The notes: generated by a model not told the origin, from the sequence alone. DNA of 64,000 nucleotides from Candidatus Harrisonbacteria bacterium (GCA_016214655.1 JACROC010000002.1:67801-131800); one strand, 5' to 3'; counted from the first letter of the stretch, positions 5,164-58,957 are shown. Program-made: numbers and translations.

Positions 5164-5775
5164 TTATACAACCTTATATAAGTTATTTTCTTTTATATAT
5201 TCAGAAACGCCCTTAGATAAATATTGACTAACCGGCTTGCCGCTGGCTATCAATGAACGTACATCGGTACTGGAAAAATTTGACGGGTCTAAATTTCTTT
5301 CCAACACCATAACATTTTTAGGCAAATTTTCCGGCAAAGAGATTCCTGGCCGGACAAGCACTATAAAATTAGCTTCTTTATATAATTTTTCGCCATTCAC
5401 CCATTTGGTTTTTATATCATTAAAACTGTCAGAACCAACTACAAAATAAAATTCAAAATCCGGATACTGATTTTCCAATTCTGTTTTAGTTTCATAAGTA
5501 GTGGTCAGCTTCGGACGATCCAATTCTAAAGTGGGTATTTTTATCGGCACCTTGGCATCCTGAAATAATTCCTTGATTAAAATTTCTACCATTTTAAACC
5601 GATGCTGTCCGCTGACACTCATAGCCTTATCGTGCCGGTCGGCAGATGGCATCACCCAGATCTCATCGCAAGGAAATTTTTTAAGGACAGAACGGATAAC
5701 CGAAACATGGCCTAAATGAGGCGGATTAAACGCCCCTCCAAAAATAACTATTCTTTTACCACTATTCTTTGTCAT
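5164..5775 (-). CDS. nadD: Nicotinate-nucleotide adenylyltransferase
   Basis: 'IVIFGGAFNPPHLGH' is the (H/T)xGH nucleotidyltransferase motif of NadD. The internal ATG (MTKNSGKR...) was preferred over the longer ORF extending to 5847. Confidence 0.85.
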   Translation of the reverse strand: MTKNSGKRIVIFGGAFNPPHLGHVSVIRSVLKKFPCDEIWVMPSADRHDKAMSVSGQHRFKMVEILIKELFQDAKVPIKIPTLELDRPKLTTTYETKTELENQYPDFEFYFVVGSDSFNDIKTKWVNGEKLYKEANFIVLVRPGISLPENLPKNVMVLERNLDPSNFSSTDVRSLIASGKPVSQYLSKGVSEYIKENNLYKVV

Positions 5776-5826
5776 TTTATGATTATCAAGCCAAAAATTT
5801 ATTTCGGCAATCTCCGCCGTCCTTTT

Positions 5827-5957
5827 CCTACCGACACCGGCGTTCATCGACTCTTGCGGTCAGCGCCGCCTACGCTTCACCGCGATTTTTCGCTTCGCGA
5901 AACCCAGTAAATCGCAATTCCGTAATTGCCGCACGAAGAATAGTTTCGGATATTTAC
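5827..5957 (+). ncRNA. Candidate structured cis-regulatory RNA, copy B, in the 5' leader of the histidine-phosphatase gene
   Basis: Homologous to copy A. It has hairpins gcgattt..aaatcgc and ttcgc..gcgaa at the positions of copy A's hairpins. It shares the conserved strings cgccgcctacgc, acccag and ttgccgcacg. Confidence 0.55.
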
Positions 5958-6036
5958 ATAAAAAAATGATTGCTTTCCATCGAAATTTCTTTTAAAATAT
6001 AGACGGAACTTAGTTAATTCAATAGGGAAAGCAAAG

Positions 6037-6819
6037 ATGAAATGGCCGCGGAAGCTGATCCTTATCCGGCACGGCGAATCTGCTTATAATCTTATGAAAA
6101 AACAGAAGGAGTCAGACCCGGACTATAAAGAATTCAGGAAGGCATATGAGGAATTTGAAAGAGACGGCTTTCGCAATGAGCTCGCCCGCCAACTGGCGGA
6201 AAAACTGAAAGAAAAATGCGATGTCGGAGTAAGCGATCCGGAAACTCCCCTTTCTCCCGAAGGGCATCGCCAAGCTTTAGAAACTGGAAAAGGCCTGTCT
6301 GTTCATTCCCGGCTTCCTGATGTCATTTTCGTTTCTCCATATGTCCGAACTCAGCAAACGCTCGCTGGATTAGTAAAAGGCTGGCCAAAACTGGGAACGG
6401 TCAAAATTATCCTAGATGAACGCATCCGGGAGCGGAATATCGGCTTATTGGAGATATTCAACGACTGGCGAATATTAAATGTGCTTTATCCGGAGCAAGC
6501 CAGACTGCACGCACGGCAAGGAAAATTTTATTACCGCTATCCGCAAGGAGAAAGCATTGTGGATGTGCAATCGCGAAACCGGCAATGGTTCCAAACCCTT
6601 ACCAGAGATTGGGCCGGCAAACGAGTACTAGTGGTATCCCATCACCTGACTATCCTTAGCATCCGAAGCCTACTGGAACGCTGGACTCCAGAACAATTCA
6701 TTGATGTGGATGAAAATCACTCTCCGAAAAATTGTTCATTAACTGTTTATCGCGGAGATCCGAAACAAGGCACCGACGGCAAACTTTGCCTCGAAACCTA
6801 TAATCAAGTTTTCTATTAA
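6037..6819 (+). CDS. Histidine phosphatase family protein (phosphoglycerate-mutase-like)
   Basis: The 'LIRHGES' RHG catalytic motif sits at the N-terminus. Confidence 0.75.
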   Translation: MKWPRKLILIRHGESAYNLMKKQKESDPDYKEFRKAYEEFERDGFRNELARQLAEKLKEKCDVGVSDPETPLSPEGHRQALETGKGLSVHSRLPDVIFVSPYVRTQQTLAGLVKGWPKLGTVKIILDERIRERNIGLLEIFNDWRILNVLYPEQARLHARQGKFYYRYPQGESIVDVQSRNRQWFQTLTRDWAGKRVLVVSHHLTILSIRSLLERWTPEQFIDVDENHSPKNCSLTVYRGDPKQGTDGKLCLETYNQVFY

Positions 6820-6846
6820 AAAATAAAGGCGCATTTCTGCGCCTTT

Positions 6847-8064
6847 TTAATATTTGCATTCCTCTGATTCGTTTCTTGTATATCCGAAAATCTTCTTAAA
6901 TCTTTCAATATCATTCGAATCTCCCATCGCCTTTGCCAGATTATCACTCAACTTCACCGTGCCGTGGCCGTTAGCTTCAGTAACCTTAACCACCAATGAT
7001 AACGCTTTAAATCCTAAGTCGTTGGTAAGGTTTGTCCCCCATCCGAATACAACATTAGTTCTTCCGCTAAATCGCTCATGGAGTTTAACGATCATATCCA
7101 CATCCAGCCCATCACTGAAAACAATAGTCTTTGTTTTAGGATCAATACCATATTTCTGATAAAACGCAATCGCTTTTTCACCGAACTCAAATGGATCTCC
7201 CGAATCCTGCCGAAAACCTCGCCACTTTCTCACCTGCTCTAAAGTTAAATCCTTAAAAAAGAAATCAGTTCCATAAGTGTCAGTAAGCGCAATTGATAGC
7301 GGCTCGCCATACTCCTTCCACCAAAGCTGTAACACCTTATTATGAGAGTACCGGATAGAATCATCACTGCCATGATAAACTCCAGATAACACCATATCCA
7401 TTTCGTGCGCAAAAGTGCCGATCGGACGGATTCCAAATCGTTTTGCAAAAGCAACATTTGAAGTTCCCAGAAGCTGATCCGGAACCGATCGCACTAAGCG
7501 GCCGATAACGTTATCCTGCCAGTAACGGCTGAATCGTCGGCGCGTGCCAAAATCTGAAAACTTTATTCCGGGATACAGGTTCAAAATCTCGATCTTTCGA
7601 GATAAACGGCTCTGTCCTTCACTCCAAACTCCAACTTCCGACCGCCCTTCCTTTCTAAGTAAAGAACGGTAATAAAGTTCGTTCACTACGGATAAAATCA
7701 GAGTTTCCCACCAAATCGCTTCCGGCCAAAGTCCAAAAACCTCAATCTTGTAAGTAGCGCCGTCTCTAGCCACAACAACTTCCGGAAGCTTCAAATTTTT
7801 TAAGAATCCTAAAAAGTCTTCGGAAAAAATCTTGAGTCCGCGCAGATATGCAATTTCCTCATCGGTAAACCGCAGGCTCCTAACATGATCCAATTCCATT
7901 CTCAAGTCTTCTTCATTGATATATTCAGCCAGCAGAACATTTTTTGTCCGATTTTTAAAACTGTACCTTACGGGTACAGTTTGATAATGCTTCCAGGCAA
8001 CCTGTGCCATCGTAAGCTTATAATAATCAAGATCTAACAGAGATCGGATGATTGGAGTATTCAT
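6847..8064 (-). CDS. pncB: Nicotinate phosphoribosyltransferase
   Basis: 'FSDFGTRRRFS', 'AHEM', 'FRQDSGDPFEFGEKAIAFYQKYGIDPKTKTIVFSDGLD' and 'VKLSDN' match NAPRTase. The start was set at MNTPIIRSLLDLDYYKLTM. Confidence 0.85.
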   Translation of the reverse strand: MNTPIIRSLLDLDYYKLTMAQVAWKHYQTVPVRYSFKNRTKNVLLAEYINEEDLRMELDHVRSLRFTDEEIAYLRGLKIFSEDFLGFLKNLKLPEVVVARDGATYKIEVFGLWPEAIWWETLILSVVNELYYRSLLRKEGRSEVGVWSEGQSRLSRKIEILNLYPGIKFSDFGTRRRFSRYWQDNVIGRLVRSVPDQLLGTSNVAFAKRFGIRPIGTFAHEMDMVLSGVYHGSDDSIRYSHNKVLQLWWKEYGEPLSIALTDTYGTDFFFKDLTLEQVRKWRGFRQDSGDPFEFGEKAIAFYQKYGIDPKTKTIVFSDGLDVDMIVKLHERFSGRTNVVFGWGTNLTNDLGFKALSLVVKVTEANGHGTVKLSDNLAKAMGDSNDIERFKKIFGYTRNESEECKY

Positions 8065-8065
8065 A

Positions 8066-8665
8066 TTAACCGCGGTCTCTAAAGAGAAGGAAGGTTTCGA
8101 TTGAAAGAGAAATAACGCCACTGCGCACCATTTCCTCTACCGCCCTATCTCCGTCGCCTGGATTGATATTTACTGCCCTAGAACCGTCAGAGAGAAAATA
8201 AGTCTTGAAACCCGCTCGTACAGCGCTTAGCGCCGTAGCTTTCACGCAATAATCAGTAGCCAAACCGCCGACATAAACCTCTTCCACACCCGCCACCCGT
8301 AAAACCCTTAACAAATTCATGCCAATATCAGTCACCCCATCAAAGGCAGAATATCCGCCATCATCATTAAGATCCATGCCCTTAGAAACGACGATCGCCT
8401 GTTCTACCTTAAGATCTTTATGAAATTTCGCGCCTTCAGTATTCTGTACACAATGCGGAGGCCACAAACCACCGCCAGTGTTAAAGTGCCTTGTTTCTGC
8501 CGGATGCCAATCACGAGAAGCGATAATTATCCAACCCTTTCGCAAGGCAAAATCTGCCATCCGATTAAGCGGTTCAACCACTTTATCGCCGTCTTTCACG
8601 GCCAATGCTCCGCCCGGACAAAAATCATTCTGTACATCCACCAAAATCAGCACTGCCCTTGCCAT
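8066..8665 (-). CDS. pncA: Nicotinamidase / pyrazinamidase (isochorismatase family)
   Basis: 'LILVDVQNDFCPGGAL' is the PncA motif. The start is at MARAV, preceded by aaggaggcaaagATG. Confidence 0.85.
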   Translation of the reverse strand: MARAVLILVDVQNDFCPGGALAVKDGDKVVEPLNRMADFALRKGWIIIASRDWHPAETRHFNTGGGLWPPHCVQNTEGAKFHKDLKVEQAIVVSKGMDLNDDGGYSAFDGVTDIGMNLLRVLRVAGVEEVYVGGLATDYCVKATALSAVRAGFKTYFLSDGSRAVNINPGDGDRAVEEMVRSGVISLSIETFLLFRDRG

Positions 8666-8793
8666 CTTTGCCTCCTTTTTTCCTTTTTCGAGGAACGTTG
8701 TCATATTACCTATGGGCCACGCCCCTCGTCAATCCTGTTAGAGGCCGCGAGAGCTCACAGCGAGCTTCTGCCTCTAACGGGATCAACCTTACT

Positions 8794-8816
8794 AATAGTG
8801 TATCATGGACACTAAC
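8794..8816. promoter_or_regulatory. Candidate NrtR operator 1 (AATAGTGT-N7-ACACTAAC) upstream of pncA-pncB
   Basis: A palindrome TAGTGT-N7-ACACTA that also occurs at 11052..11074 and 15943..15965. All three are in promoter regions of NAD/ADP-ribose genes. Confidence 0.5.
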
Positions 8817-8902
8817 AAATAGTCAATACAAAAAGCCTTTGCTAAATTAGTGGCGCTTTAACGCGTTAAAGCGCCGAACAAGTAAAACTAAAATTAAAAT
8901 TG

Positions 8903-8925
8903 AAAAAACCCGCGGTCAGCGGGTC
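8903..8925 (-). terminator. Terminator after the ADP-ribosylglycohydrolase gene
   Basis: Hairpin acccgc-ggtca-gcgggt, followed on the minus strand by TTTTTT. Confidence 0.55.
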
Positions 8926-8932
8926 TATCAAC

Positions 8933-9862
8933 CTATTCCAGTTTCTTTTCTAATTTCTCTCCTAGCTGAATCAAGTAATCTCTGCCACATGGTCCGTTCT
9001 CCAGATCTCTTAGTAGAAATTCCGGAAACGAATCAAGTCCGCACTGGATTGCTTTTAAGCCAGTCGCAAGTGCGGCAACGCTATCTGTATCCCCGCCGAG
9101 CAAAACTGATTCTTTAAGCACGCTTACGGTGTCAGGATATTTTGTAACCAGATACAACACCGCTCCCGCAGTCCGCATACCATCGCAAGGAACGCCGTAA
9201 TCTTTATCTGCTTCTCCAAAAAGTAAGACTGGATCAAATTCTTTCATATCCCCGATTGCCGTCCAATACTCGGTAGATTCCGGATCAATAGCCAAACTTA
9301 GTTCCAAACAATAATTAAACAATTTATCAATCGGTCCGACATCGTGCAAAAAATAATGCGATGCAAGCGCCATGCAAACCGAAGACGCTTTTCCTTTAAG
9401 CGTATCGTGCGTAACTGAGGCATTTGTCATTGCGGCTTCAATCACTAATCTTGCATTCTTCAGAAGGCCTAATGGCGTTGCGCGCATTGCCGCGCCATTC
9501 CGGATAGAATTAGTCTTAAGCTTCGCAATCAATCCTTTCCCATCCGACACCTCCGGCAGCGTAATTCGCAATCCCTTGCCATAACCATTCCGTTCATCGC
9601 GCTTATAAGTTTTTACAAAATAATCAGCGAAGTTTTCTTTGGTCAACAGCTTTCCGGACAAAAGCAATTCCGCAATCGCAATGGACATCTGCGTATCATC
9701 AGTATATTCTCCGGCTCCGTTTCCCCATTCTTCTTTCGGATTCCTCTGATATTTAGTAAAATCAAAAACCCTAGGAATTTCATATCTGGTCATAGTCTCA
9801 TAGCGGATCCCGAATGCATCGCCCACCGCAAGTCCCAATAAAAGATTTTGTATCTTATTCAT
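8933..9862 (-). CDS. ADP-ribosylglycohydrolase family protein
   Basis: The N-terminal 'LLGLAVGDAFG' motif is characteristic of the DraG/ARH family. Confidence 0.75.
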   Translation of the reverse strand: MNKIQNLLLGLAVGDAFGIRYETMTRYEIPRVFDFTKYQRNPKEEWGNGAGEYTDDTQMSIAIAELLLSGKLLTKENFADYFVKTYKRDERNGYGKGLRITLPEVSDGKGLIAKLKTNSIRNGAAMRATPLGLLKNARLVIEAAMTNASVTHDTLKGKASSVCMALASHYFLHDVGPIDKLFNYCLELSLAIDPESTEYWTAIGDMKEFDPVLLFGEADKDYGVPCDGMRTAGAVLYLVTKYPDTVSVLKESVLLGGDTDSVAALATGLKAIQCGLDSFPEFLLRDLENGPCGRDYLIQLGEKLEKKLE

Positions 9863-11033
9863 CGCCTTTCTCTGTTAAAACCGAAAGAATCTTGCCAATA
9901 TTACTCCAATCAAGGAGTCTCTCCGACAAAATTTCCTTCACGGTTTTTACTTCAATATAAGTACGTTCGCCAGTGGGATTATCTAAATCCGCCCCATGCA
10001 CAACGCCCCTTTGACTGATAAACCATTGCATTTCCTTTTCGGTAAGCTCTACGGAAAAAAGATGCGCCTTATGCGCGGTAAAAGTTCCGGCTAACTGACG
10101 CGCGCCATGAGCTTGAAAACGCTTCGGCTCACATTTGAAGCCAGTTTCTTCATAAACCTCTTCCGCAGCAACCGAATACGGGTCGCTGTTGGGCTTAGCC
10201 GGAGATCCGCCCGGCAACTCCCAAATATAGCAGTCCGGAGTGGAGGCGGGCGTCCTAAATTCCCTAACCAATATTACTCGAGACTGTAAAATATCCAACG
10301 CTCGCGTATAAAGAATTACCGTGGCAATATCTGGCCGAGAAATCAAAATCTCGTTGGTTTTATTTCTGTTTTCACTGGCAATATGGATATTCAGGTGCAT
10401 GGCAAAGCTAAAAATGTGTTCCCGGTTTTTCCCAACTCGATGAATCCATTTCAAAACCGCGCCATCAATTCGATTCCCGACTCTCTTCTGCGCTCTATAC
10501 CACAATTGAAAAGTTCCAGTCCGCCAAATCCGAAGCGGCACGTCCCGTTCCCCGCCAACTCGCATCGCTCCTGGATTAAGCAGGTCTAAACACTTTTCAA
10601 TCGTTTCCTGCAGAGTATGTAAAATCGGAATATCATTTTTCTCGGCAACCAGATCAAGATATTTAATCTTTTCCGCTTCCGGCGGATATCCTAAAACCGA
10701 TTTGCCCAAATGAACATAAAGCCCGAATTCCACATTCGTCGTAAAGCCTGGCAGCATTTCCAAGTTGCGCGGCACCCAGAAAAGAATGCAATCGGCGGCA
10801 TTCAGTGCCTTATGTTCCCATTCAACTTGCTCCCGATAATTAAAATTCTCATAAATTCCGCCGCCACGATCTTCCGGCACAAATACCACCCCGTCATAGC
10901 CGAAGGTTTTTAAGATGCGCAACGCCTCAGAGCGCCAAGATTTAACTTCCGCTTTCTGCGGAGTCGGCCCGGCAAGGAAAATAGATTTCTTCCAAGCCAG
11001 CGGAAACGTTTCACGGCTATAGACCACTTCCAT
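9855..11033 (-). CDS. Fusion protein: nucleoside 2-deoxyribosyltransferase-like N-domain plus NUDIX hydrolase C-domain
   Basis: N-terminal 'SIFLAGPT...W...VVFVPE' resembles the NDT-like fold. The C-terminal 'ELPGGSPAKPNSDPYSVAAEEVYEETGF' is a Nudix-box-like motif. It overlaps the downstream gene by 8 nt, so the two form an operon. Confidence 0.6.
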   Translation of the reverse strand: MEVVYSRETFPLAWKKSIFLAGPTPQKAEVKSWRSEALRILKTFGYDGVVFVPEDRGGGIYENFNYREQVEWEHKALNAADCILFWVPRNLEMLPGFTTNVEFGLYVHLGKSVLGYPPEAEKIKYLDLVAEKNDIPILHTLQETIEKCLDLLNPGAMRVGGERDVPLRIWRTGTFQLWYRAQKRVGNRIDGAVLKWIHRVGKNREHIFSFAMHLNIHIASENRNKTNEILISRPDIATVILYTRALDILQSRVILVREFRTPASTPDCYIWELPGGSPAKPNSDPYSVAAEEVYEETGFKCEPKRFQAHGARQLAGTFTAHKAHLFSVELTEKEMQWFISQRGVVHGADLDNPTGERTYIEVKTVKEILSERLLDWSNIGKILSVLTEKGDE

Positions 11034-11051
11034 ATTTTCACCTATTAAATG

Positions 11052-11074
11052 TTAGTGTACTAATTACACTTTAT
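11052..11074. promoter_or_regulatory. Candidate NrtR operator 2 (TTAGTGT-N7-ACACTTT) in the divergent region between the Nudix-fusion gene and a methyltransferase
   Basis: Same TAGTGT-N7-ACACT architecture as sites 1 and 3. Confidence 0.45.
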
Positions 11075-11117
11075 TTTGATATTAGAATTCTGTCAATAAC
11101 ATTGATAGACTGACTGT

Positions 11118-12068
11118 ATGGAAAAAGAATTAGCCCGCGGCAGAAAATTCCGCATTTATAGCTCTTTAATGGATGCGGCAATTGAGCAAAAAATAAAAGA
11201 TGTTATACCATGGGTCAAACCAGGAATAATCGTGGATGCCGGCTTTGGAACCGGCCTGCTCCTTTTCCGATTATGGGAAAGATTCAGGGATTCTAAGCTT
11301 ATCGGCATCGATCTCTCTTCGCATTTTTTTGAAAAATCCCAAAGGCAATTCCATAACATCCCCAATGTTACGCTGCTCAAGAAAAACATCATTCAGCAGA
11401 ATCTTCCAAATAATTCAGTGGATACTAAAATCTTTTCCACTATTCTCCATGAGGTATATTCTTACAATGGCTGTAATTTAAAATTTGTAAAGACTGCGCT
11501 CAAGAATTCCCTAAAAGAATTAAAACCAAGCGGCCGCATTATCATCCGCGATGGCGTAAAACCAGAATCAGAAACTATCTGCCTATCATTTAAAAATGGT
11601 GATGACACAGAAACAATGTTTCTGCGCTTTGCCAAAGAATATAAACATAATAAAGGAATAAAATATAAAGTTCTAATAGACAAGTGGCTAGGCAAATTAT
11701 ATTGTACCGACTCTTCTTCGGCTTACGAGTTTCTTTCTAAAAAAGACTACCGCGATAACTGGCATATTGAAGTAAACGAGCAATTTGGATATTTAACTCT
11801 TAAAAAATATATGAAACTACTGCAAAAACTTGGCTTCAAAATAATTTATACAAAGGCTTATCTAAATCCCTGGATCCTAAAGAACCGCTGGCTTGGTAAA
11901 GTAAAACTTTATCGAAGGACAAGGCACGAATTAAAAACCATTCCTTATCCAAATACAAATTTAGTAATTATTGCGGAAAAACAAAAACCCCCGAAGGGGT
12001 TTAATTGGCAAAACATTGCCGGGCATCCTGATTCAAAAATTTCCATAATCGGCGGCAGAATTCTCTGA
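11118..12068 (+). CDS. Class I SAM-dependent methyltransferase
   Basis: 'IVDAGFGTGLLL' glycine-rich SAM-binding motif. Confidence 0.65.
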   Translation: MEKELARGRKFRIYSSLMDAAIEQKIKDVIPWVKPGIIVDAGFGTGLLLFRLWERFRDSKLIGIDLSSHFFEKSQRQFHNIPNVTLLKKNIIQQNLPNNSVDTKIFSTILHEVYSYNGCNLKFVKTALKNSLKELKPSGRIIIRDGVKPESETICLSFKNGDDTETMFLRFAKEYKHNKGIKYKVLIDKWLGKLYCTDSSSAYEFLSKKDYRDNWHIEVNEQFGYLTLKKYMKLLQKLGFKIIYTKAYLNPWILKNRWLGKVKLYRRTRHELKTIPYPNTNLVIIAEKQKPPKGFNWQNIAGHPDSKISIIGGRIL

Positions 12069-13248
12069 AGCGTTCCCAATGGGAAGGCCTGTATCCTTTT
12101 TCCGTATAATAATATCTTCCTCCTAAAACGGCTTTACCGGAAGCAGAGTCCAGGCAAGTATCATTAGAGTAAATATGAGTTTCCATAGAAGTATCAACTG
12201 CAATATGGGCTTGTTTTAAAATCTGGCGGATCGCCTTTTGCATCAAAATCCGATAACGCTGGTTACCATAAAGTTTTTCAATAGCAGCTGCCGGCTTCTT
12301 CCGCCTTAACGTAAGACCTGCCCGGATAATCATCCTGGAGACAAATTTATCGCCCTGCATCACATAAGCAATCACTGCGGAATTGGCAATATCTTCATAA
12401 AGCCCCTTACGATAATCGCCACCCTCCAAATTCACACAGCTATCCCAAGGTTTTTCGGTTGAGGCCTGCAGAATATCCAGCGACTCATTAGAAATTACTA
12501 AATCTATCACATGCTCTTCGGAACGGCCGAAAAAAGAAAGGATCGGATTCCGCGGATGCACCCCTAACCGCATCAAAACTTTAGTAATCTTCCTTGAATC
12601 AGCAATGATCTCATCCGGCGAAATTGGTGAGTTGAACATCTCTAATAATAAACCGATCTTTTCTTTCAAAGCTGCTGAATCGGTGGTCGCATTGACAACA
12701 TACCTGCCAGCCACTTTATCAAGAAAATTATTCCTTACGGATCTTTTTTCTAACGCATCCGCCAAAAGCTGTTCGTCCACCAAACGCCGCAATGCTTCTG
12801 GTTCCGGCAAGTCAGTCTTATGGCTTGCTTTTGCTAAATCGGAAAAACCGAATTCAAAAATATCCGGAGCATTCCAGGTATTTAAAAACTTTTTCTGCCG
12901 CTCCTCCTTAGCGCCAGACCGCGAAAGATTTAAGTCAAATAGCTGGGCATGGCCTCGCCATAAATAAACCTCTCCGAAATTTCTTTTAAGATATTCTTCA
13001 ATACTTCCGCTCTTGGCAATCTCTTCTAACACCTGGCCAAGCCTCGGAAAGTAGCGCAATAATAATTTCCGTAATTTTTGCCCTTGATAGATTTGCAGCG
13101 AATATTTATCTAAAGATTCTCCGAAAGAAACTAATTCTGAAAGAGAAGAATCCTCGCGACAAGTCGCATGAATTTTAACTGATAACGACCCGTTTCTGGC
13201 AGCCTTTTCCGCACTATGCAAGGATTCTGGAAATTGCCGGTCTCCCAC
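12001..13248 (-). CDS. Hypothetical protein (415 aa), co-directional with nadE and nrtR
   Basis: Long ORF with no recognisable motifs. It is probably the last gene of the nadE-nrtR operon. Confidence 0.5.
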   Translation of the reverse strand: MGDRQFPESLHSAEKAARNGSLSVKIHATCREDSSLSELVSFGESLDKYSLQIYQGQKLRKLLLRYFPRLGQVLEEIAKSGSIEEYLKRNFGEVYLWRGHAQLFDLNLSRSGAKEERQKKFLNTWNAPDIFEFGFSDLAKASHKTDLPEPEALRRLVDEQLLADALEKRSVRNNFLDKVAGRYVVNATTDSAALKEKIGLLLEMFNSPISPDEIIADSRKITKVLMRLGVHPRNPILSFFGRSEEHVIDLVISNESLDILQASTEKPWDSCVNLEGGDYRKGLYEDIANSAVIAYVMQGDKFVSRMIIRAGLTLRRKKPAAAIEKLYGNQRYRILMQKAIRQILKQAHIAVDTSMETHIYSNDTCLDSASGKAVLGGRYYYTEKGYRPSHWERFREFCRRLWKFLNQDARQCFAN

Positions 13249-13331
13249 TTGATCCTCCGTTTACTCATATTTAGTTTTGAGTGACTGATGATATTTTAAC
13301 AGAAAAATAATAAAAAGTCAAAGAGCTATTA

Positions 13332-14012
13332 TTAAAAGAATTTCTTCAATTCTGTCGGCTTGGTAGTAATGAACTGATAAAGCTTCGCTGGGCGCTGAGG
13401 CGTGCCGGAAAGCATTTTACGGGTAGATCGCATTAATCCAAGAGATAAAAATTTCTTACGGAAATTCCGCTTATCCAATTTTTTATCCAAAATTATCTCA
13501 TAAGCGCTCTGAAGCTGATTGAGGGTAAAATATTTCGGCAATAAAGAAAATACCACATTAGTATATCCCAGCTTCGCCTGCAGCCGCTTGACGGCATAGC
13601 TGATTATATTTTTATGATCAAAAGCAACCGCCGGAAGCTTCTTTACCGGATGAAACGCCGGGGTTTGCAAATCGCCGCTTCCTTCAAACCCGATTTTATC
13701 CCGCGGCACAAGCGCAAAATAAGCAACAGTCAGCACGTGGCCGCGCGGATCGCGTCCCAAACTGTCAAAAGTATAAAGCTGTTCCGCATAAACATTTCTA
13801 ACTCCGGCTTTTTCCTTTAAAATCCTGAGCGCGCCTTGCTCTGAAGTTTCATTCCTTAAAAGAAAACCTCCTGGCAAGGCCCAGGATCCTTTGAATGGCT
13901 GGTCAGCTCTTTTAATTAATAAAACCTTTAATTGGCCGTCTTCTATAGTAAAAATGACGGTATCTACGGTAACTGCTGGCGGTGTGTATAATTTCATAAT
14001 TCTTTTAGCCAA
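13332..14012 (-). CDS. nrtR: NrtR-family transcriptional regulator (Nudix-like domain plus C-terminal winged helix)
   Basis: Nudix-like 'LPGGFLLRNETSEQGALRILKEKAG' with the C-terminal 'FTLNQLQSAYEIILDKKLDKRNFRKKFLSLGL' signature of NrtR regulators. Confidence 0.75.
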   Translation of the reverse strand: MAKRIMKLYTPPAVTVDTVIFTIEDGQLKVLLIKRADQPFKGSWALPGGFLLRNETSEQGALRILKEKAGVRNVYAEQLYTFDSLGRDPRGHVLTVAYFALVPRDKIGFEGSGDLQTPAFHPVKKLPAVAFDHKNIISYAVKRLQAKLGYTNVVFSLLPKYFTLNQLQSAYEIILDKKLDKRNFRKKFLSLGLMRSTRKMLSGTPQRPAKLYQFITTKPTELKKFF

Positions 14013-15934
14013 AGATTTACTTCTGCGTCAGATGGCATGCGCCAATCACCGCGAGGTGATAATGCGACCGATCCGACTTTCGGCCCATCCGGCATAACCG
14101 ACCGCTTCCACTGATTGCGGAAGAACCGGGTCACAAAAACCTTCAGCCATTTATGGATCGTCTCCGGCTTGTATTTCTTATCAAAAGCGTTTTCCGCCAA
14201 AAAAAGGATCTTTCTAGGACTGCTTCCCCACCGCAAAAAATGATACAAGAAGAAATCATGAAGTTCGTAGGGACCAACCAAATCCTCAGTTTTTTGCGTA
14301 ATGCCCTTTTTACCGCTACGCACCAACTCCGGAGAAATCGGCGTCGCTAAAATATCTCTTAATACTTTCTTCGCTTTTACAAAATCTCCCTGCTCACTTA
14401 CCCATTCCACCAGATATTTAACTAATAATTTGGGGATACTCGCATTAACGTTATAATGGGAAATCTGATCGCCGGTAAATGTATTCCAGCCAAGCGCAAT
14501 CTCCGAAAGATCGCCCGTACCCACCACGATCCCGCCAAGTTGATTGGCTTTATCCATCAGCGTCAACGTCCGATAACGCGCCTGCACGTTCTCAAAAGTA
14601 AGGTCCTGAGTTTTAGTATCGTGGCTGATGTCTTTTAATTGCTGCAGCGCGCCTTTAGTAATATCAATTGTTTCAATACTCACTCCAAGCGCTTCTGCTA
14701 ATTTCAGCGCATTGGATTTTGTCCTTTTAGTTGTCGCGAATCCCGGAAGCGTATATGTATGAATATTTTTTAGCGGCAATCCTAAAAGGCCGGCGGTTTT
14801 TACCGCGACCAAAAGAGCCAGAGTTGAATCCAGGCCGCCAGAAACACCGATCACCAGATTCTTTATCCCCGCCTGCTCCAAACGCTTCACCAGCCCCGCA
14901 GATTGGATCGCAAATATTTCTTCCGCCCGCTTGCTGCGCTCAGCCGGATCCTGCGGCACAAAAGACCACGGATTCACGTGCCTATCAAACGTACGCACAG
15001 CCAAAATTGGAAGCGGCACATCTGCAAAACGGAAATTTTTTCTGGCAGATTCATGAATTGATTCTCCGAAACTCGTCTGGCGTTCGCGATCCAATGAAAG
15101 ATGCTCCAGATCTATATCGGAAAAAATAAGATCACTAGTCCGGGAAAACCGCTGGTTTTCAGAAAGTATATTGCCATTTTCCGCAATCAGCGCATGCCCG
15201 CCAAACACCACATCAGTCGTGGATTCATGAACGCCGCATGAAGAATAAATATAACCGCACACCCCGCGCGCAGATTGCTGGGCAATAAGGTTCTTGCGGT
15301 AATCTGCCTTCCCCACTAAATCATTAGAGGCGGAAAGGTTGGCAATAATCGTCGCGCCAGCCACTACCTGAAACGAACTCGGCGGAATCGGCACCCAGAG
15401 ATCTTCGCAAATCTCTAAGCCCAGAACCGCTTCCGGCATATTCTTAAATCGGAAAAGAAGGTCTGTCCCGACAGGAACGCTTTTACCGTCAATCAGCGTT
15501 TCTTTCGCAATTAAATCGCGAGCGGACGCAAACCACCGCTCCTCATAAAATTCTTTGTATCCTGGAATATATGTCTTCGGAACCAGCCCTAAAATTTCGC
15601 CGCGACTCACCACTGCGCCAATATTAAAAATTTTTCCGTCCAAACTAAATGGCAATCCGGCAACTAAAACGGCATTTAAATTCCTAGAAGCCTTTTTAAT
15701 GGCAATCAAGGCCTCTTTAGCTTTTTTTAATAAATTCCGCTGATGGAATAGATCGGCGCAGGTATAACCGGTTAGACCAAGTTCCGGGAAAACTGCAACC
15801 GAAGCGCCGAGTTTTGCGGCTTTTTCCGCCAAAGTTAAGGTCTGCTTAAGATTATAATCAACGTCTCCCACTTTAAGGGTTGGTACGGCTGCCGCTACTT
15901 TTATAAAGCCAAATTGATTTAATTTACCGGCCAT
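13994..15934 (-). CDS. nadE: Glutamine-dependent NAD+ synthetase (nitrilase domain plus NAD synthetase domain)
   Basis: The N-terminal C-N hydrolase domain has 'FPELGLTGY'. The C-terminal PP-loop has 'VIGVSGGLDSTLALLVA'. Confidence 0.85.
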   Translation of the reverse strand: MAGKLNQFGFIKVAAAVPTLKVGDVDYNLKQTLTLAEKAAKLGASVAVFPELGLTGYTCADLFHQRNLLKKAKEALIAIKKASRNLNAVLVAGLPFSLDGKIFNIGAVVSRGEILGLVPKTYIPGYKEFYEERWFASARDLIAKETLIDGKSVPVGTDLLFRFKNMPEAVLGLEICEDLWVPIPPSSFQVVAGATIIANLSASNDLVGKADYRKNLIAQQSARGVCGYIYSSCGVHESTTDVVFGGHALIAENGNILSENQRFSRTSDLIFSDIDLEHLSLDRERQTSFGESIHESARKNFRFADVPLPILAVRTFDRHVNPWSFVPQDPAERSKRAEEIFAIQSAGLVKRLEQAGIKNLVIGVSGGLDSTLALLVAVKTAGLLGLPLKNIHTYTLPGFATTKRTKSNALKLAEALGVSIETIDITKGALQQLKDISHDTKTQDLTFENVQARYRTLTLMDKANQLGGIVVGTGDLSEIALGWNTFTGDQISHYNVNASIPKLLVKYLVEWVSEQGDFVKAKKVLRDILATPISPELVRSGKKGITQKTEDLVGPYELHDFFLYHFLRWGSSPRKILFLAENAFDKKYKPETIHKWLKVFVTRFFRNQWKRSVMPDGPKVGSVALSPRGDWRMPSDAEVNLWLKEL

Positions 15935-15942
15935 GATAATAT

Positions 15943-15965
15943 AATAGTGTCACTTTTACACTATT
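15943..15965. promoter_or_regulatory. Candidate NrtR operator 3 (AATAGTGT-N7-ACACTATT) in the 41-bp nadE/nadK divergent intergenic region
   Basis: The most symmetric copy of the TAGTGT-N7-ACACTA palindrome. Confidence 0.5.
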
Positions 15966-15975
15966 CTAACCTAAT

Positions 15976-16821
15976 ATGATTAACCCGTCAATAAAGTCGG
16001 TTGGTTTCTTTTATCGGCCGGGTAATCCAAAGATAGCGGCCTGGGAAAAGAAAATCTGTGCCTGGCTTAAACAAAAATATCCGCAAGTTAAACTAACCGA
16101 GAAAAAGCCGCAGGCTCTGATTGTGCTTGGCGGCGATGGAACTATCTTGGAAGCCGCCCGGCGATATCTTTCACAAAATCCGCTGGTGGTAGGATTAAAT
16201 TTAGGCCACATCGGTTTTTTGGCATCAGTCCGCAAGCCGAAGGATTTCCTATCCGGACTAAATTTATTAATAAAAGGAAAATACCGCATTACCGAAAGAA
16301 TGATGCTGGCTGCCGAAGTTAAAAGAAAAAATAAAATAATCTTAAAAACCTATTCCTTAAACGATATTGCAGTGCAAAGTCTGCTGGGGGTAGCGGAGAT
16401 GGAAGTCGGCATTGACCATCAGCCGGTCCAATACATCCGCGGCACGGGCGTTCTAGTGGCCACCGCTACCGGCTCAACCGCCTATAATCTTTCGGCACAC
16501 GGACCGATTGTAATGCCAGACATCAAATGCTTTATTGTAACTGAACTAATGGATCATAACGTACCCACCCCAAGCATCGTGGTAAAAAGAAACCGGGAGA
16601 TTTATATAAAAATTTCCGACTTCCGGGAACGCGGCGTTCTTTCGATTACCAAAACCGGAGAAAAAGTTGATGTCATCCTTTCTTCCGACTGTGAGAGTGC
16701 TTTTCCGATAAAAATCGGTGATGAAATCACTATCCGCCGCTCCCCCCGCCTGGTCCGCTTTGCCGAATTCGAACCGCATTATTTCTTCAGAAGCCTGCAG
16801 GAAAAATTCGCTTTTCGATAA
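15976..16821 (+). CDS. nadK: NAD kinase
   Basis: 'LIVLGGDGTILEAAR' is the GGDG motif of NAD kinases. Confidence 0.8.
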   Translation: MINPSIKSVGFFYRPGNPKIAAWEKKICAWLKQKYPQVKLTEKKPQALIVLGGDGTILEAARRYLSQNPLVVGLNLGHIGFLASVRKPKDFLSGLNLLIKGKYRITERMMLAAEVKRKNKIILKTYSLNDIAVQSLLGVAEMEVGIDHQPVQYIRGTGVLVATATGSTAYNLSAHGPIVMPDIKCFIVTELMDHNVPTPSIVVKRNREIYIKISDFRERGVLSITKTGEKVDVILSSDCESAFPIKIGDEITIRRSPRLVRFAEFEPHYFFRSLQEKFAFR

Positions 16822-19462: not shown

Positions 19463-19500
19463 AGCATACTTGACAAAATAGTTTCAGAAATGTTAGTATA
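19463..19500. promoter_or_regulatory. Divergent promoter region with an inverted TTGACAA repeat
   Basis: cttgtcaa-N10-ttgacaa. TTGACA-18-TAGTAT on the plus strand for the 19580 gene. The reverse TTGACA-17-TATCAT serves the 19379 gene. Confidence 0.45.
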
Positions 19501-19579
19501 TCTTCAGCACTAAACAACACGAAGACAACGACGTTTAGTATTAGCTAAGCCGCAGTTTCACACTGCGGCAGGAGGCAAA

Positions 19580-20749
19580 ATGGGAAAGACAACGGACACG
19601 CTTCTAGATGGACTGAAAGAGAGGCGCGGCCAATTAGGGAAGCTTCAGACTGGCGTCACTACAATCACTGGCCTGGACGAATTGGATGTTACTAAAGAAG
19701 GCGGGGCCAAGACTACTGCGCAGGTTCTAAAAGGGGCTAGCAGCAAGCTAGCCGAGGCCAAGGTCTTTGGCGACCGTATGGAGCAGGAGCTCCGCGATCT
19801 CTGTATGGGGCTTGAGACCAAGCTTGAGGAAATCGGATATTCAGTTTCCGATTCTTACCGCTTCCGTGGCACAGAAAAGGTTTGGGCGTTTTTCGGTGGC
19901 CTAGGACTAAAGTCCTGCACTGATCGCGCTCAACGCCTCCGCCTGCATCGGCTCCAGACTCAGGATGTCCAAGAGAGCGTTAAGGAAGTCAATGATCTGG
20001 TGGAAAAGACTATCCGCGAACTTGGAGAGATCGAAAAGCAGTATCTCGCCGATATCGGTGATGTGAAAGCCGGCACTGGCTACAACGCCACTCTGCGTTT
20101 GGTCATCGAAAAGCTAAAGGAGGCTCAGCCAAAATTCCGCGAAGTCAAAGAACGACGGGAGAAGTTTGAAACCGAACTGAAGACCCTTCAGATGGAACTT
20201 GAGTCCGGAACTGTTTCCGAAAGCGAGCGTCCGGCCAAAGAAGACGAACTGGAGGAACTCCGAAAGAACCATCAGAAGGCTTATCTCCTTGAAACCGAAT
20301 TACATGAGGTTATCCAGAACGCCCAACGGGCAATTCCGGAGATTCAGAAGAACCGCGATGCTGCACAGCAAGCAGTCCAGTCTCTACGACAGATGCGCCG
20401 AGGCCTCCTCGAGAAGATGGAGAACTTCCGCATCGTGCTGGAAACGGCGATGACTGCGGTCCGGGCTCGCGCGAAACTCGAGCGTTACGAGAACGTTGAT
20501 CCAGCCCTGAACAAGACCATTACACTGCTCAGCGAGCATAACGTGAAGGTGGCGGCCGCAGCGATGGAGATTGCCATCGAACGAGCCAAACATGCGGCCA
20601 TCAATCCGGAAGATTCCGCCAGATTACTCAATGAACTCACCGAAAGCATCAATACCTACGCTACCGAACTAGCCGCACTGGAAGAGGACGCCAAGCAAGG
20701 CGCCAGGAAGAAACGAGGCACTTCGCAAGCTAACGGAGACGGCAACTAA
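19580..20749 (+). CDS. Coiled-coil protein (possibly TelA-like), GC-rich
   Basis: All-helical, charged heptad-like sequence with no TM segment. RBS ggcaggaggcaaaATG. Confidence 0.5.
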   Translation: MGKTTDTLLDGLKERRGQLGKLQTGVTTITGLDELDVTKEGGAKTTAQVLKGASSKLAEAKVFGDRMEQELRDLCMGLETKLEEIGYSVSDSYRFRGTEKVWAFFGGLGLKSCTDRAQRLRLHRLQTQDVQESVKEVNDLVEKTIRELGEIEKQYLADIGDVKAGTGYNATLRLVIEKLKEAQPKFREVKERREKFETELKTLQMELESGTVSESERPAKEDELEELRKNHQKAYLLETELHEVIQNAQRAIPEIQKNRDAAQQAVQSLRQMRRGLLEKMENFRIVLETAMTAVRARAKLERYENVDPALNKTITLLSEHNVKVAAAAMEIAIERAKHAAINPEDSARLLNELTESINTYATELAALEEDAKQGARKKRGTSQANGDGN

Positions 20750-56589: not shown

Positions 56590-58555
<1,966 letters not shown>

Positions 58556-58957
58556 TAAATTTGATTGCAGGAAACCCTCGAACGAGTTTCTCGCAACCAA
58601 ATTCTGTATTGGGACAACTAGAAAATTTTCTTTTTTAATCTTGGACTCGCTCATCCCGCAACACGGGACAAACGATTTTGCTCAATTAACTAATTGATAA
58701 TTTTACCTTTTTGTTTTATCAAAGCGGCGAGTACTATTTTCCGTGAAAATAATACACCCGCCTTGTTCCTCGGTTTCCCAAGAAGCAAGGCGGATGTACT
58801 TTAAAAATCCAAATATTTATTTTTTAATTAAGCACCAATAATCATATTAGTAATATACATTATATTCGCAAACACAAATAGCGTCAATACCCCTCCAAAA
58901 CTTTCTTCCCCGCGCAGTTTAAATGCGCGGAGACTGAAAATTCTCGAGAATTTTCGT

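Follow-up and report, generated by a model that had tools for sequence, protein, structure and literature searches.

Patescibacteria combine a minimal metabolism with very few recognisable regulators, and their supply of nicotinamide adenine dinucleotide (NAD) depends on salvage. We describe here a gene cluster at positions 5164-16821 of a 64,000-nt stretch of DNA (the window) from Candidatus Harrisonbacteria (Patescibacteria), in which NAD genes and an operon of putative ADP-ribose enzymes lie around a gene for a regulator of the NrtR family and three copies of one palindrome, TAGTGT-N7-ACACTA, named O1 to O3 and strongly supported as operators of this regulator. The cluster (Table 1) holds nadD, a histidine-phosphatase gene, pncB and pncA, the genes of an ADP-ribosylglycohydrolase (ARH) and of a fusion enzyme made of an NDT-like and a Nudix part, a methyltransferase gene, nrtR, nadE and nadK. 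The gene identities proposed in an earlier reading made from the DNA alone (the sequence-only reading) were all borne out by domain and family searches. None of pnuC, NAMPT, nadA or a second nrtR was found elsewhere in the 64-kb window. The ATG of nrtR (13997) overlaps the stop codon of nadE (ATGA) and the ARH gene overlaps that of the fusion enzyme by 8 nt, so each pair would form one operon, nadE and nrtR being co-transcribed.

Table 1. Coordinates of the genes, insertion and predicted regulatory features of the cluster, and of related fusion genes in other loci (L numbers)
Feature	Coordinates	Strand	Evidence and remarks
nadD	5164..5847	-	TIGR00482 124.8 bits vs cut-off 112
histidine-phosphatase-family protein	6037..6819	+	PF00300 95 bits; between nadD and pncB
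pncB, nicotinate phosphoribosyltransferase	6847..8121	-	NAPRTase + NAPRTase_N; NF003704 453 bits vs 379
pncA, nicotinamidase	8066..8704	-	Isochorismatase domain; NF008623 173 bits vs cut-off 174
predicted NrtR operator O3 (TAGTGTatcatggACACTA)	8796..8814	.	0 mismatches, weight-matrix score 20.8; upstream of pncA-pncB
sigma-70-like promoter of pncA-pncB, TTGACT-18-TACACT	8826..8797	-	scan 9/12, TG extension
intrinsic-terminator-like hairpin ending the fusion-ARH operon	8926..8906	-	8-bp stem, 5 G-C pairs, T-run
ADP-ribosylglycohydrolase, ARH (309 aa)	8933..9862	-	PF03747 149 bits
NDT-like + Nudix fusion enzyme (392 aa)	9855..11033	-	PF15891, PF00293 (weak)
predicted NrtR operator O2 (TAGTGTactaattACACTt)	11053..11071	.	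1 mismatch, weight-matrix score 22.8; between the fusion gene and the divergent methyltransferase gene
sigma-70-like promoter of the fusion-ARH operon, TTGACA-17-TAAAGT	11096..11068	-	scan 10/12; -10 overlaps O2
class I methyltransferase dependent on S-adenosylmethionine (SAM) (316 aa)	11118..12068	+	methyltransferase Pfam matches; divergent from the fusion gene
1.35-kb insertion carrying a 415-aa ORFan	11982..13332	-	synteny with L161 breaks between 11981 and 13333
415-aa open reading frame	12001..13248	-	own promoter 13321..13293, own terminator 12002..11985
nrtR (221 aa)	13332..13997	-	NUDIX + NrtR_WHD; LDKRNFRKK motif present
nadE, glutamine-dependent NAD synthetase (646 aa)	13994..15934	-	CN_hydrolase + NAD_synthase; NF002730 882 bits vs 473
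predicted NrtR operator O1 (TAGTGTcacttttACACTA)	15945..15963	.	0 mismatches, weight-matrix score 19.9; 41-bp gap between divergent nadK and nadE
sigma-70-like promoter of nadE-nrtR, TTGACG-17-TAGAAT	15991..15963	-	scan 10/12; -10 abuts O1
nadK, NAD kinase	15976..16821	+	NAD_kinase and NAD_kinase_C domains; divergent from nadE
fusion genes of a NadM-like domain and a methyltransferase	L017:8416-9969; L034:8442-9941; L043:7735-9222; L026:4765-6414; L003:6460-7983; L074:4039-5625		

With at most one mismatch allowed, the palindrome occurs exactly three times in the window, each time at the promoter place that the sequence-only reading had given it, against 0.03 matches expected in 64 kb; none of 100 dinucleotide-preserving shuffles of the window reaches three, in line with the earlier opinion that three copies of fixed spacing are unlikely by chance. 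If up to three mismatches are tolerated the count becomes 11, against 10.6 by chance, and the three copies thus form a discrete set and are not simply the best members of a family of repeats. Non-coding DNA accounts for about 13.5% of the window and holds all three, and in their extended form they follow a 21-bp palindrome, tTAGTGT-N7-ACACTAa. The gap around O1 had been correctly measured at 41 bp; for O2 the start and the sequence had been read correctly, but the 21-nt form as written ends at 11072 and not at 11074. A position weight matrix (PWM) trained solely on sites from other genomes places O2, O3 and O1, in this order, at ranks 1-3 of the window, and the match at rank 4 scores 10.9, within the range of best scores from shuffled sequence (7.4-15.6). 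We rejected this fourth candidate (TAGTAT-N7-GCACTA, 19494-19512) as an operator on account of that score and because both of its mismatches fall in the invariant core. It is, moreover, simply the -10 element of a TTGACA-N18-TAGTAT promoter (promoter and site together at 19470-19512), behind which lies a 389-aa open reading frame (ORF) without family (19580-20749).

The palindrome was then sought in three sets of loci. The first comprises 80 loci encoding NrtR homologues (L numbers below L081; 1.2 Mb in total), taken from one-genome-per-species collections and spanning Patescibacteria, DPANN archaea, Acidobacteria, Planctomycetes, Chloroflexi, Proteobacteria and others. The 19-bp pattern matches 82 times in these loci against 2-4 times in shuffles, mostly upstream of nrtR and NAD genes, and 60 of the 82 matches are non-coding, for a non-coding background of 13.6%. 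The genes directly downstream of these outside sites are nrtR, nadE, nadK, pncA, pncB, nadD, pnuC and NAMPT, and further nadA, NH3-dependent nadE and ARH. The consensus of the 82 sites is again tTAGTGT-N7-ACACTAa, and all three window sites have GT-N7-AC; most published NrtR motifs share a 21-bp palindromic symmetry with a conserved GT-N7-AC core, and the sites overlap promoters or fall between promoter and start codon (PMC2330246). The second set consists of 80 metagenome loci chosen via the fusion gene (L081-L160), recovered with an alignment of the fusion protein as query (the peptide query alone gave none); 11 of the 12 that have a strong site also have NAD genes. The third is made of six contigs of close relatives (L161-L166) with the same gene order and an NrtR 86-88% identical to that of the window. 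Here O1 is kept in L161, L162 and L164, O2 is the same or nearly so in all six, spacer included, and O3 is kept in L161 and L163 (PWM scores 30.1 and 28.4) though its flanks differ; the operators are thus preserved while the neighbouring non-coding DNA varies.

One could object that the palindromes are the sites of another protein, or mere promoter sequence, and that NrtR binds elsewhere. The half-site TAGTGT/TACACT does fit TAnnnT, like a -10 hexamer, the weak fourth match at 19494 is the plain -10 of a promoter, and the pairing of palindrome and NrtR is drawn from sequence. This explanation nevertheless appears highly improbable to us: none of the other promoters of the window carries the full 19-bp palindrome, whose geometry is the one published for NrtR; the palindrome tracks nrtR through the candidate phyla radiation (CPR), DPANN archaea, Acidobacteria, Planctomycetes, Chloroflexi and Proteobacteria and often immediately precedes that gene; and the strong sites of the loci chosen for another gene accompany mainly NAD genes. 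Geometry, co-occurrence with nrtR, the outside PWM and conservation in relatives together lend strong support to the reading of the palindromes as operators of the neighbouring NrtR, whose regulon would be legible from sequence, as had been claimed.

Two observations made on the outside loci deserve mention. In many operators of Saccharibacteria-type loci the spacer opens with TTGACA (TAGTGTTGACAATACACTA; L013:11743, L025:10751, L070:10705, L072:6306 and 10702, L062:15757), so that these operators are built around a -35 box, whereas the window operators overlap the -10. The NrtR family has been described as bacterial, and it is worth recording that nine DPANN metagenome-assembled genomes, of Woesearchaeota, Pacearchaeota and Nanobdellati (L016, L017, L021, L024, L026, L028, L034, L040, L043), encode NrtR homologues of about 50% identity, with the same operators or TATTGT-N7-ACAATA variants upstream of nadA, NAMPT, pncB and nrtR.

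A consensus scan for promoters and terminators, covering 7.5 kb and scoring sigma-70-like promoters out of 12 matches, placed each operator on a candidate minus-strand promoter (Table 1). O1 would span about -7 to +12 of the nadE-nrtR promoter, whose TTGACG occurs together with the operator in L161 as well. At O2 the TTGACA and the spacing are kept in relatives, and at O3, where a TTGACT promoter had been proposed and was recovered by the scan, the -10 of pncA-pncB is itself the promoter-proximal half-site. The score of 10/12 is the highest in the 7.5 kb and is common to the O1 and O2 promoters and one other. A terminator-like hairpin parts the ARH gene from the pncA promoter and has equivalents in L161 and L163. 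The pncA leader of about 90 nt contains a long hairpin (GTTAGAGGC...GCCTCTAAC, 8737-8778), and a second palindrome lies at 8851-8877; neither has an Rfam match and neither is present in the relatives. A riboswitch in this leader was considered and set aside: all Rfam scores fall well short of the gathering thresholds, and the relatives lack the hairpin.

Among the targets, nrtR would be autoregulated via O1, as the second gene of the nadE operon. On the other side of the same gap O1 ends 12 nt ahead of the nadK ATG, a TATAAT at 15940-15945 overlaps its left arm, and nadK forms a divergent pair with nadE or with nrtR around one common site in four other Parcubacteria loci (L002, L004, L005, L007); for these reasons nadK is very probably co-regulated, and its divergent arrangement is kept in close relatives. 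In pncA-pncB the true start of pncB probably lies downstream of the GTG at 8121, the relatives having theirs 5-6 nt past the pncA stop. As for nadD, which the sequence-only reading had counted in the neighbourhood, its identity stands, but the PWM scan of the window gives it no NrtR site: the gap of 5848-6036 between nadD and the histidine-phosphatase gene has no match, and the nearest matches, inside the nadD coding sequence, score 2.2 (5184) and -0.9 (5746). The same scan finds no site for the histidine-phosphatase gene. In Saccharibacteria nadD homologues also stand at NrtR sites, and homologues of the phosphatase gene have upstream sites scoring 23-29 (L013:16264-17085, L030:11716-12573, L048:10663-11487). 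The phosphatase gene recurs inside NAD salvage clusters, and in Saccharibacteria NrtR sites are common to it and pncA.

The operon behind O2 would unite two enzymes of ADP-ribose metabolism. The nearest solved relatives of the ARH are ARH3 and DraG. In the fusion enzyme the N-terminal half matches PF15891 with 48.5 bits for a cut-off of 30 (E = 1e-12), and Asp81 and Glu102, the latter in G-x5-E-x-G, are invariant in 23 homologues; these two we read as the putative catalytic residues. In an AlphaFold2 model computed from an alignment of 23 sequences (pLDDT 88.9), the last 210 residues have the fold of ADP-ribose diphosphatases, NudK and NUDT5, which make up the top 50 PDB matches of Foldseek (E 8e-12 to 1e-9, TM-score 0.6-0.75 normalised to the target). 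This module has a two-part fold, an N-terminal beta-sheet module followed by a Nudix domain, and its Nudix box EEVYEETGF is intact, with the glutamates kept; as modelled, the C-terminal half is an ADP-ribose pyrophosphatase-type Nudix fold of the NudF/NUDT5/NudK group. The family counts 1667 homologues, mostly from Patescibacteria, of constant length (about 385-395 aa), and 19 of the 80 loci chosen for it hold other homologues of the window cluster nearby, mostly pncA, pncB, ARH, nadD, nadE and nrtR. In the literature we searched there was no description of an NDT-like/Nudix fusion, nor of the combination of Nudix, NDT and NAD salvage. Operons of ARH, fusion, pncA and pncB genes headed by NrtR sites recur in several Parcubacteria metagenome loci, and one site is common to the ARH gene and pncA in Saccharibacteria. 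Such operons, together with the conservation of O2 in relatives, support the membership of the ADP-ribose operon in the predicted NrtR regulon of the window lineage, as the sequence-only reading had it.

The methyltransferase gene, 47 nt from O2 on the other side, raises the question of whether O2 serves it too. It could be that O2 serves only the fusion-ARH operon, the methyltransferase being an unregulated bystander unrelated to NAD. It has no good sigma-70 promoter, the sole candidate of the scan overlapping its start codon; it matches generic methyltransferase models only, and a homologue occurs in just two of the 80 loci chosen for the fusion gene (L081, L086). On the other hand, all six related contigs (L161-L166) preserve the divergent arrangement around O2. 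A TAGAAT that lies 11 nt past O2, on the strand of the methyltransferase gene, is conserved as well and would set O2 over the -35 region of the gene. More telling is the family to which the protein belongs. CPR bacteria and DPANN archaea have proteins of about 500 aa whose C-terminal half is 35-36% identical to residues 2-290 of the window protein (E = 4e-54 and 4e-58), so that the homology runs end to end. The N-terminal 200 residues of these longer proteins, searched as a 17-sequence profile, match full-length archaeal nicotinamide mononucleotide (NMN) adenylyltransferases in the PDB (1e-11 to 3e-9); below E = 0.1 there is just one further match, to the NadM domain of a bifunctional NMN adenylyltransferase (0.02). 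Of the best 150 representatives of the methyltransferase family, 32 carry this NadM-like domain; the window protein lacks it and begins at the methyltransferase domain. Other members are 700-790 aa long with the methyltransferase at the N-terminus.

Genes for these NadM-like fusions adjoin nrtR and have NrtR sites in L017, L034, L043, L074 and L026: in three DPANN loci the fusion gene is divergent from nrtR with a site in common, in a Saccharibacteria locus, which has two sites, it converges on nrtR and diverges from pnuC, and another DPANN locus has it inside an operon with a site at its head and nrtR as its last gene. In the NadM-like domain TKFQ takes the place of the nucleotidyltransferase motif (H/T)xGH, so the domain may bind rather than adenylylate. 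Fusion, adjacency and common operators thus tie the methyltransferase family to NAD metabolism, and we consider the window methyltransferase a likely member of the NrtR regulon, in agreement with the role in NAD homeostasis suggested for it earlier, and the bystander explanation rather unlikely. A fusion of NadM and methyltransferase was not described in the searched literature; the one match concerned a different, SAM-cleaving neighbour of nadM in haloarchaea and was discarded.

A second gene that the sequence-only reading had implicated in NAD homeostasis, the 415-aa ORF between the methyltransferase gene and nrtR, does not hold its place in the regulon. It is carried by an insertion absent from all close relatives, in which nrtR and the methyltransferase gene are directly convergent, and the inserted DNA brings along both a strong promoter for it (TTGACT-17-TAAAAT, TG-extended) and a terminator. 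It belongs to no family in Pfam, NCBIfam, PHROGs or PADLOC, and a collection of 5.8 billion protein sequences holds no homologue but itself. Being insertion-borne and without homologues, it has nothing that links it to NAD. The insertion also supplies the last 26 residues of the methyltransferase, replacing its end. Elsewhere in the window, the region 56874-58556 (minus strand) holds a 16S rRNA match that spans the whole 1533-position model in just 1409 nt and, some 200 nt downstream of this match, a group II intron domain 1-4 match (37.9 bits).

With regard to the regulator itself, the 221-aa form of NrtR is 100% identical to a protein deposited from a metagenome-assembled genome of Candidatus Harrisonbacteria. 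The Nudix-like domain and winged helix-turn-helix with the LDKRNFRKK motif, recognised earlier, correspond to PF00293 at residues 19-136 (E = 7.4e-15, 55.6 bits for a cut-off of 21.1) and to the full model of PF21906, NrtR_WHD, at residues 154-214 (82.9 bits for a cut-off of 27). The Nudix box is degenerate, G44-x5-E50-x7-R58 ILKEK, where S. oneidensis NrtR (SoNrtR) has RKLAEK; positions 2 and 6 of REUxEE, glutamates in the consensus, are Ile and Lys in the window protein. The closest solved proteins are BtAraR (2.8e-39) and SoNrtR (a moderate phmmer match, 2.2e-31, 112 bits), and the alignment with both runs across the two domains. Architecture, degenerate Nudix box, operator geometry, promoter overlap, NAD targets and predicted autoregulation all fit NrtR; the lineage-specific equivalog threshold of NCBIfam is the sole testable feature on which the protein fails. 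Judged by its sequence, it is a member of the family but no equivalog of the sequences from which NF050029 was built.

From these elements we propose that NrtR is a dimeric repressor, made of a degenerate Nudix effector domain and a winged-helix DNA-binding domain, that would bind the three palindromes over the -10/+1 of the minus-strand sigma-70-type promoters and block RNA polymerase, the mode of repression proposed for the NrtR family (PMC2330246). It would control nadE-nrtR (with autoregulation), the divergent nadK being under the same site; the fusion and ARH genes, the divergent methyltransferase gene probably being under the same site with the operator over its -35; and pncA-pncB. Consumption of NAD would let ADP-ribose, or a derivative close to it, build up and bind the Nudix domain, and NrtR would leave the DNA. 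The salvage, amidation and phosphorylation of NAD would then be induced together with enzymes that release and destroy ADP-ribose, whose removal would close a negative feedback loop on the inducer. We hold this operator and repressor model, built on sequence comparison, to be very likely. What the analysis establishes are the sites with their significance, conservation and promoter overlap, together with the domain architecture and the gene identities; that the protein binds DNA and represses, which effector it answers to, and what the fusion enzyme and methyltransferase act on, we infer.

A number of points tell against this model or parts of it. Binding, repression and effector are transferred by homology. 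The sites that trained the PWM were picked by the same pattern, and independence is confined to the flanks and the co-occurrence statistics. Taken as a whole, the promoter scan shows no enrichment (13 candidates for 14.7 in shuffles), so only the coincidence of promoters with sites counts as evidence. A strong site stands directly upstream in only 3 of 75 homologues of the fusion gene, which would make the control of this gene lineage-specific, or exerted from the head of a longer operon. The remaining points concern the ligand. The best solved relative of the window NrtR is the arabinose sensor AraR and not an ADP-ribose sensor; NF050029, the 'ADPR responsive transcriptional repressor', gives 166.3 bits (E = 8e-49) for a cut-off of 400; Asn43 of SoNrtR is replaced by Asp32, and Tyr10 has no counterpart. 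NrtR relatives with other ligands have been reported, e.g., NAD for NdnR (PMC4666351).

It is therefore fair to ask whether the palindromes are NrtR operators whose signal is another metabolite, such as NAD, nicotinic acid adenine dinucleotide, O-acetyl-ADP-ribose or phospho-ADP-ribose. In that case the circuit could work by product repression, with the ligand tightening the binding, and not through induction by a breakdown product. The arabinose of AraR and the NAD of NdnR, the closeness to AraR, the missed equivalog cut-off, the change of one phosphate-contact residue (Asn43 to Asp) and the lack of a counterpart to the adenine-contacting Tyr10 all speak for such a reading. In SoNrtR, ADP-ribose is contacted by Phe15, Arg41, Asn43, Lys76 and Arg98, and the arabinose sensor AraR has Leu and Gly in place of Lys76 and Arg98 (PMC4666351). 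Phe15, Arg41, Lys76 and Arg98 align with Tyr4, Arg30, Lys63 and Arg85 of the window NrtR, and the last three, counterparts of the diphosphate and ribose contacts, two of which AraR has lost, are invariant among 15 NrtR homologues. These conserved residues favour ADP-ribose or a close relative as ligand, and a regulon with ADP-ribose-releasing and ADP-ribose-pyrophosphatase-like enzymes would suit ADP-ribose as inducer. Accepting ADP-ribose as the specific signal of the window NrtR seems to us the better choice, by a modest preference, and a different ligand unlikely.

A broader hypothesis can be put forward more tentatively. Patescibacteria and DPANN archaea may run an undescribed, NrtR-controlled branch of NAD and ADP-ribose recycling by means of two uncharacterised enzymes, a SAM-dependent methyltransferase that would act on a pyridine nucleotide or a precursor, and an NDT-like N-glycosidase/ADP-ribose pyrophosphatase that would convert ADP-ribose, or NAD/NMN, to base and ribose-5-phosphate and feed PncA-PncB. 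We regard it as possible, with somewhat more to be said against it than for it. What the locus offers is a complete and readable circuit in a Patescibacteria genome, with predicted sensor, operators, promoters and targets, and the same NrtR-operator pair is common to DPANN archaea and many bacterial phyla. For specialists the main interest would lie in the enzymes: through guilt by regulation the circuit points to a part in NAD and ADP-ribose metabolism for two families, both widespread and uncharacterised, one being the NDT-like/ADP-ribose-pyrophosphatase fusion and the other the methyltransferase family with NadM-like fusions. In the literature searched no paper combined NrtR and Patescibacteria, and this is accordingly the first reading of an NrtR regulon in Patescibacteria that we could find.

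The regulator and its mechanism are already known; what the window contributes is an extension of the regulon as read here by nadK, the ADP-ribose operon and the methyltransferase. S. oneidensis NrtR (SO1979; PDB 3GZ5, 3GZ6, 3GZ8) and Synechocystis Slr1690 are experimentally validated ADP-ribose-responsive repressors (Rodionov et al. 2008, PMC2330246). With SoNrtR the window regulator shares the two-domain architecture, the degenerate Nudix box, the Arg/Lys/Arg residues among the ADP-ribose contacts (though not Asn43 and Tyr10) and, as predicted, a GT-N7-AC operator over NAD-gene promoters; its wing and helix motif is DKRNFRKK where SoNrtR has QGKSFRRR. The known targets are prs-nadV in Shewanella and nadA, nadE and nadM-nadV in Synechocystis (PMC2330246), whereas those predicted in the window are nadE-nrtR/nadK, pncAB and the ADP-ribose operon, in a Patescibacteria genome without the de novo NAD pathway within the window. 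The published salvage-I regulon of NrtR likewise places salvage-I genes and the universal nadE step under one NrtR, with nrtR inside a regulated operon. To this scheme the window adds nadK, ARH, the NDT-like/Nudix fusion and probably the methyltransferase, and it leaves out nadD; NAD kinase is nowhere mentioned in the 2008 NrtR paper (PMC2330246) and would be an addition to the NrtR repertoire.

An ADP-ribosylglycohydrolase under predicted NrtR control has a precedent in the nrtR1-draG-SCO1765 locus of Streptomyces (PMC2330246). The Streptomyces regulon consists of that ADP-ribose locus alone, whereas the window ARH would belong to one operon of a wider NAD regulon and is translationally coupled to a Nudix fusion enzyme. 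BtAraR, the L-arabinose repressor of Bacteroides (PDB 5BS6, 5DEQ; PMC4666351), has the DKRNFRK motif in its DNA-binding domain as the window NrtR does, but its nucleotide pocket is filled (Leu67 and Gly89 for Lys63 and Arg85 of the window) and it controls arabinose genes; the window NrtR keeps the nucleotide-contact residues at these two places and has NAD genes as its predicted targets. Finally, the bifunctional NadM-Nudix enzyme of Synechocystis and Francisella, an NMN adenylyltransferase/ADP-ribose pyrophosphatase (PDB 2QJO, 2QJT), also joins an NAD-pathway domain to a second catalytic domain, and both a NadM-type domain and an ADP-ribose-pyrophosphatase-type Nudix module occur in the regulon family of the window. 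They are, however, combined differently: the Nudix module of the window is joined to an NDT-like N-glycosidase/transferase domain, and the NadM-like domain of the relatives, with its TKFQ motif, is joined to a methyltransferase.

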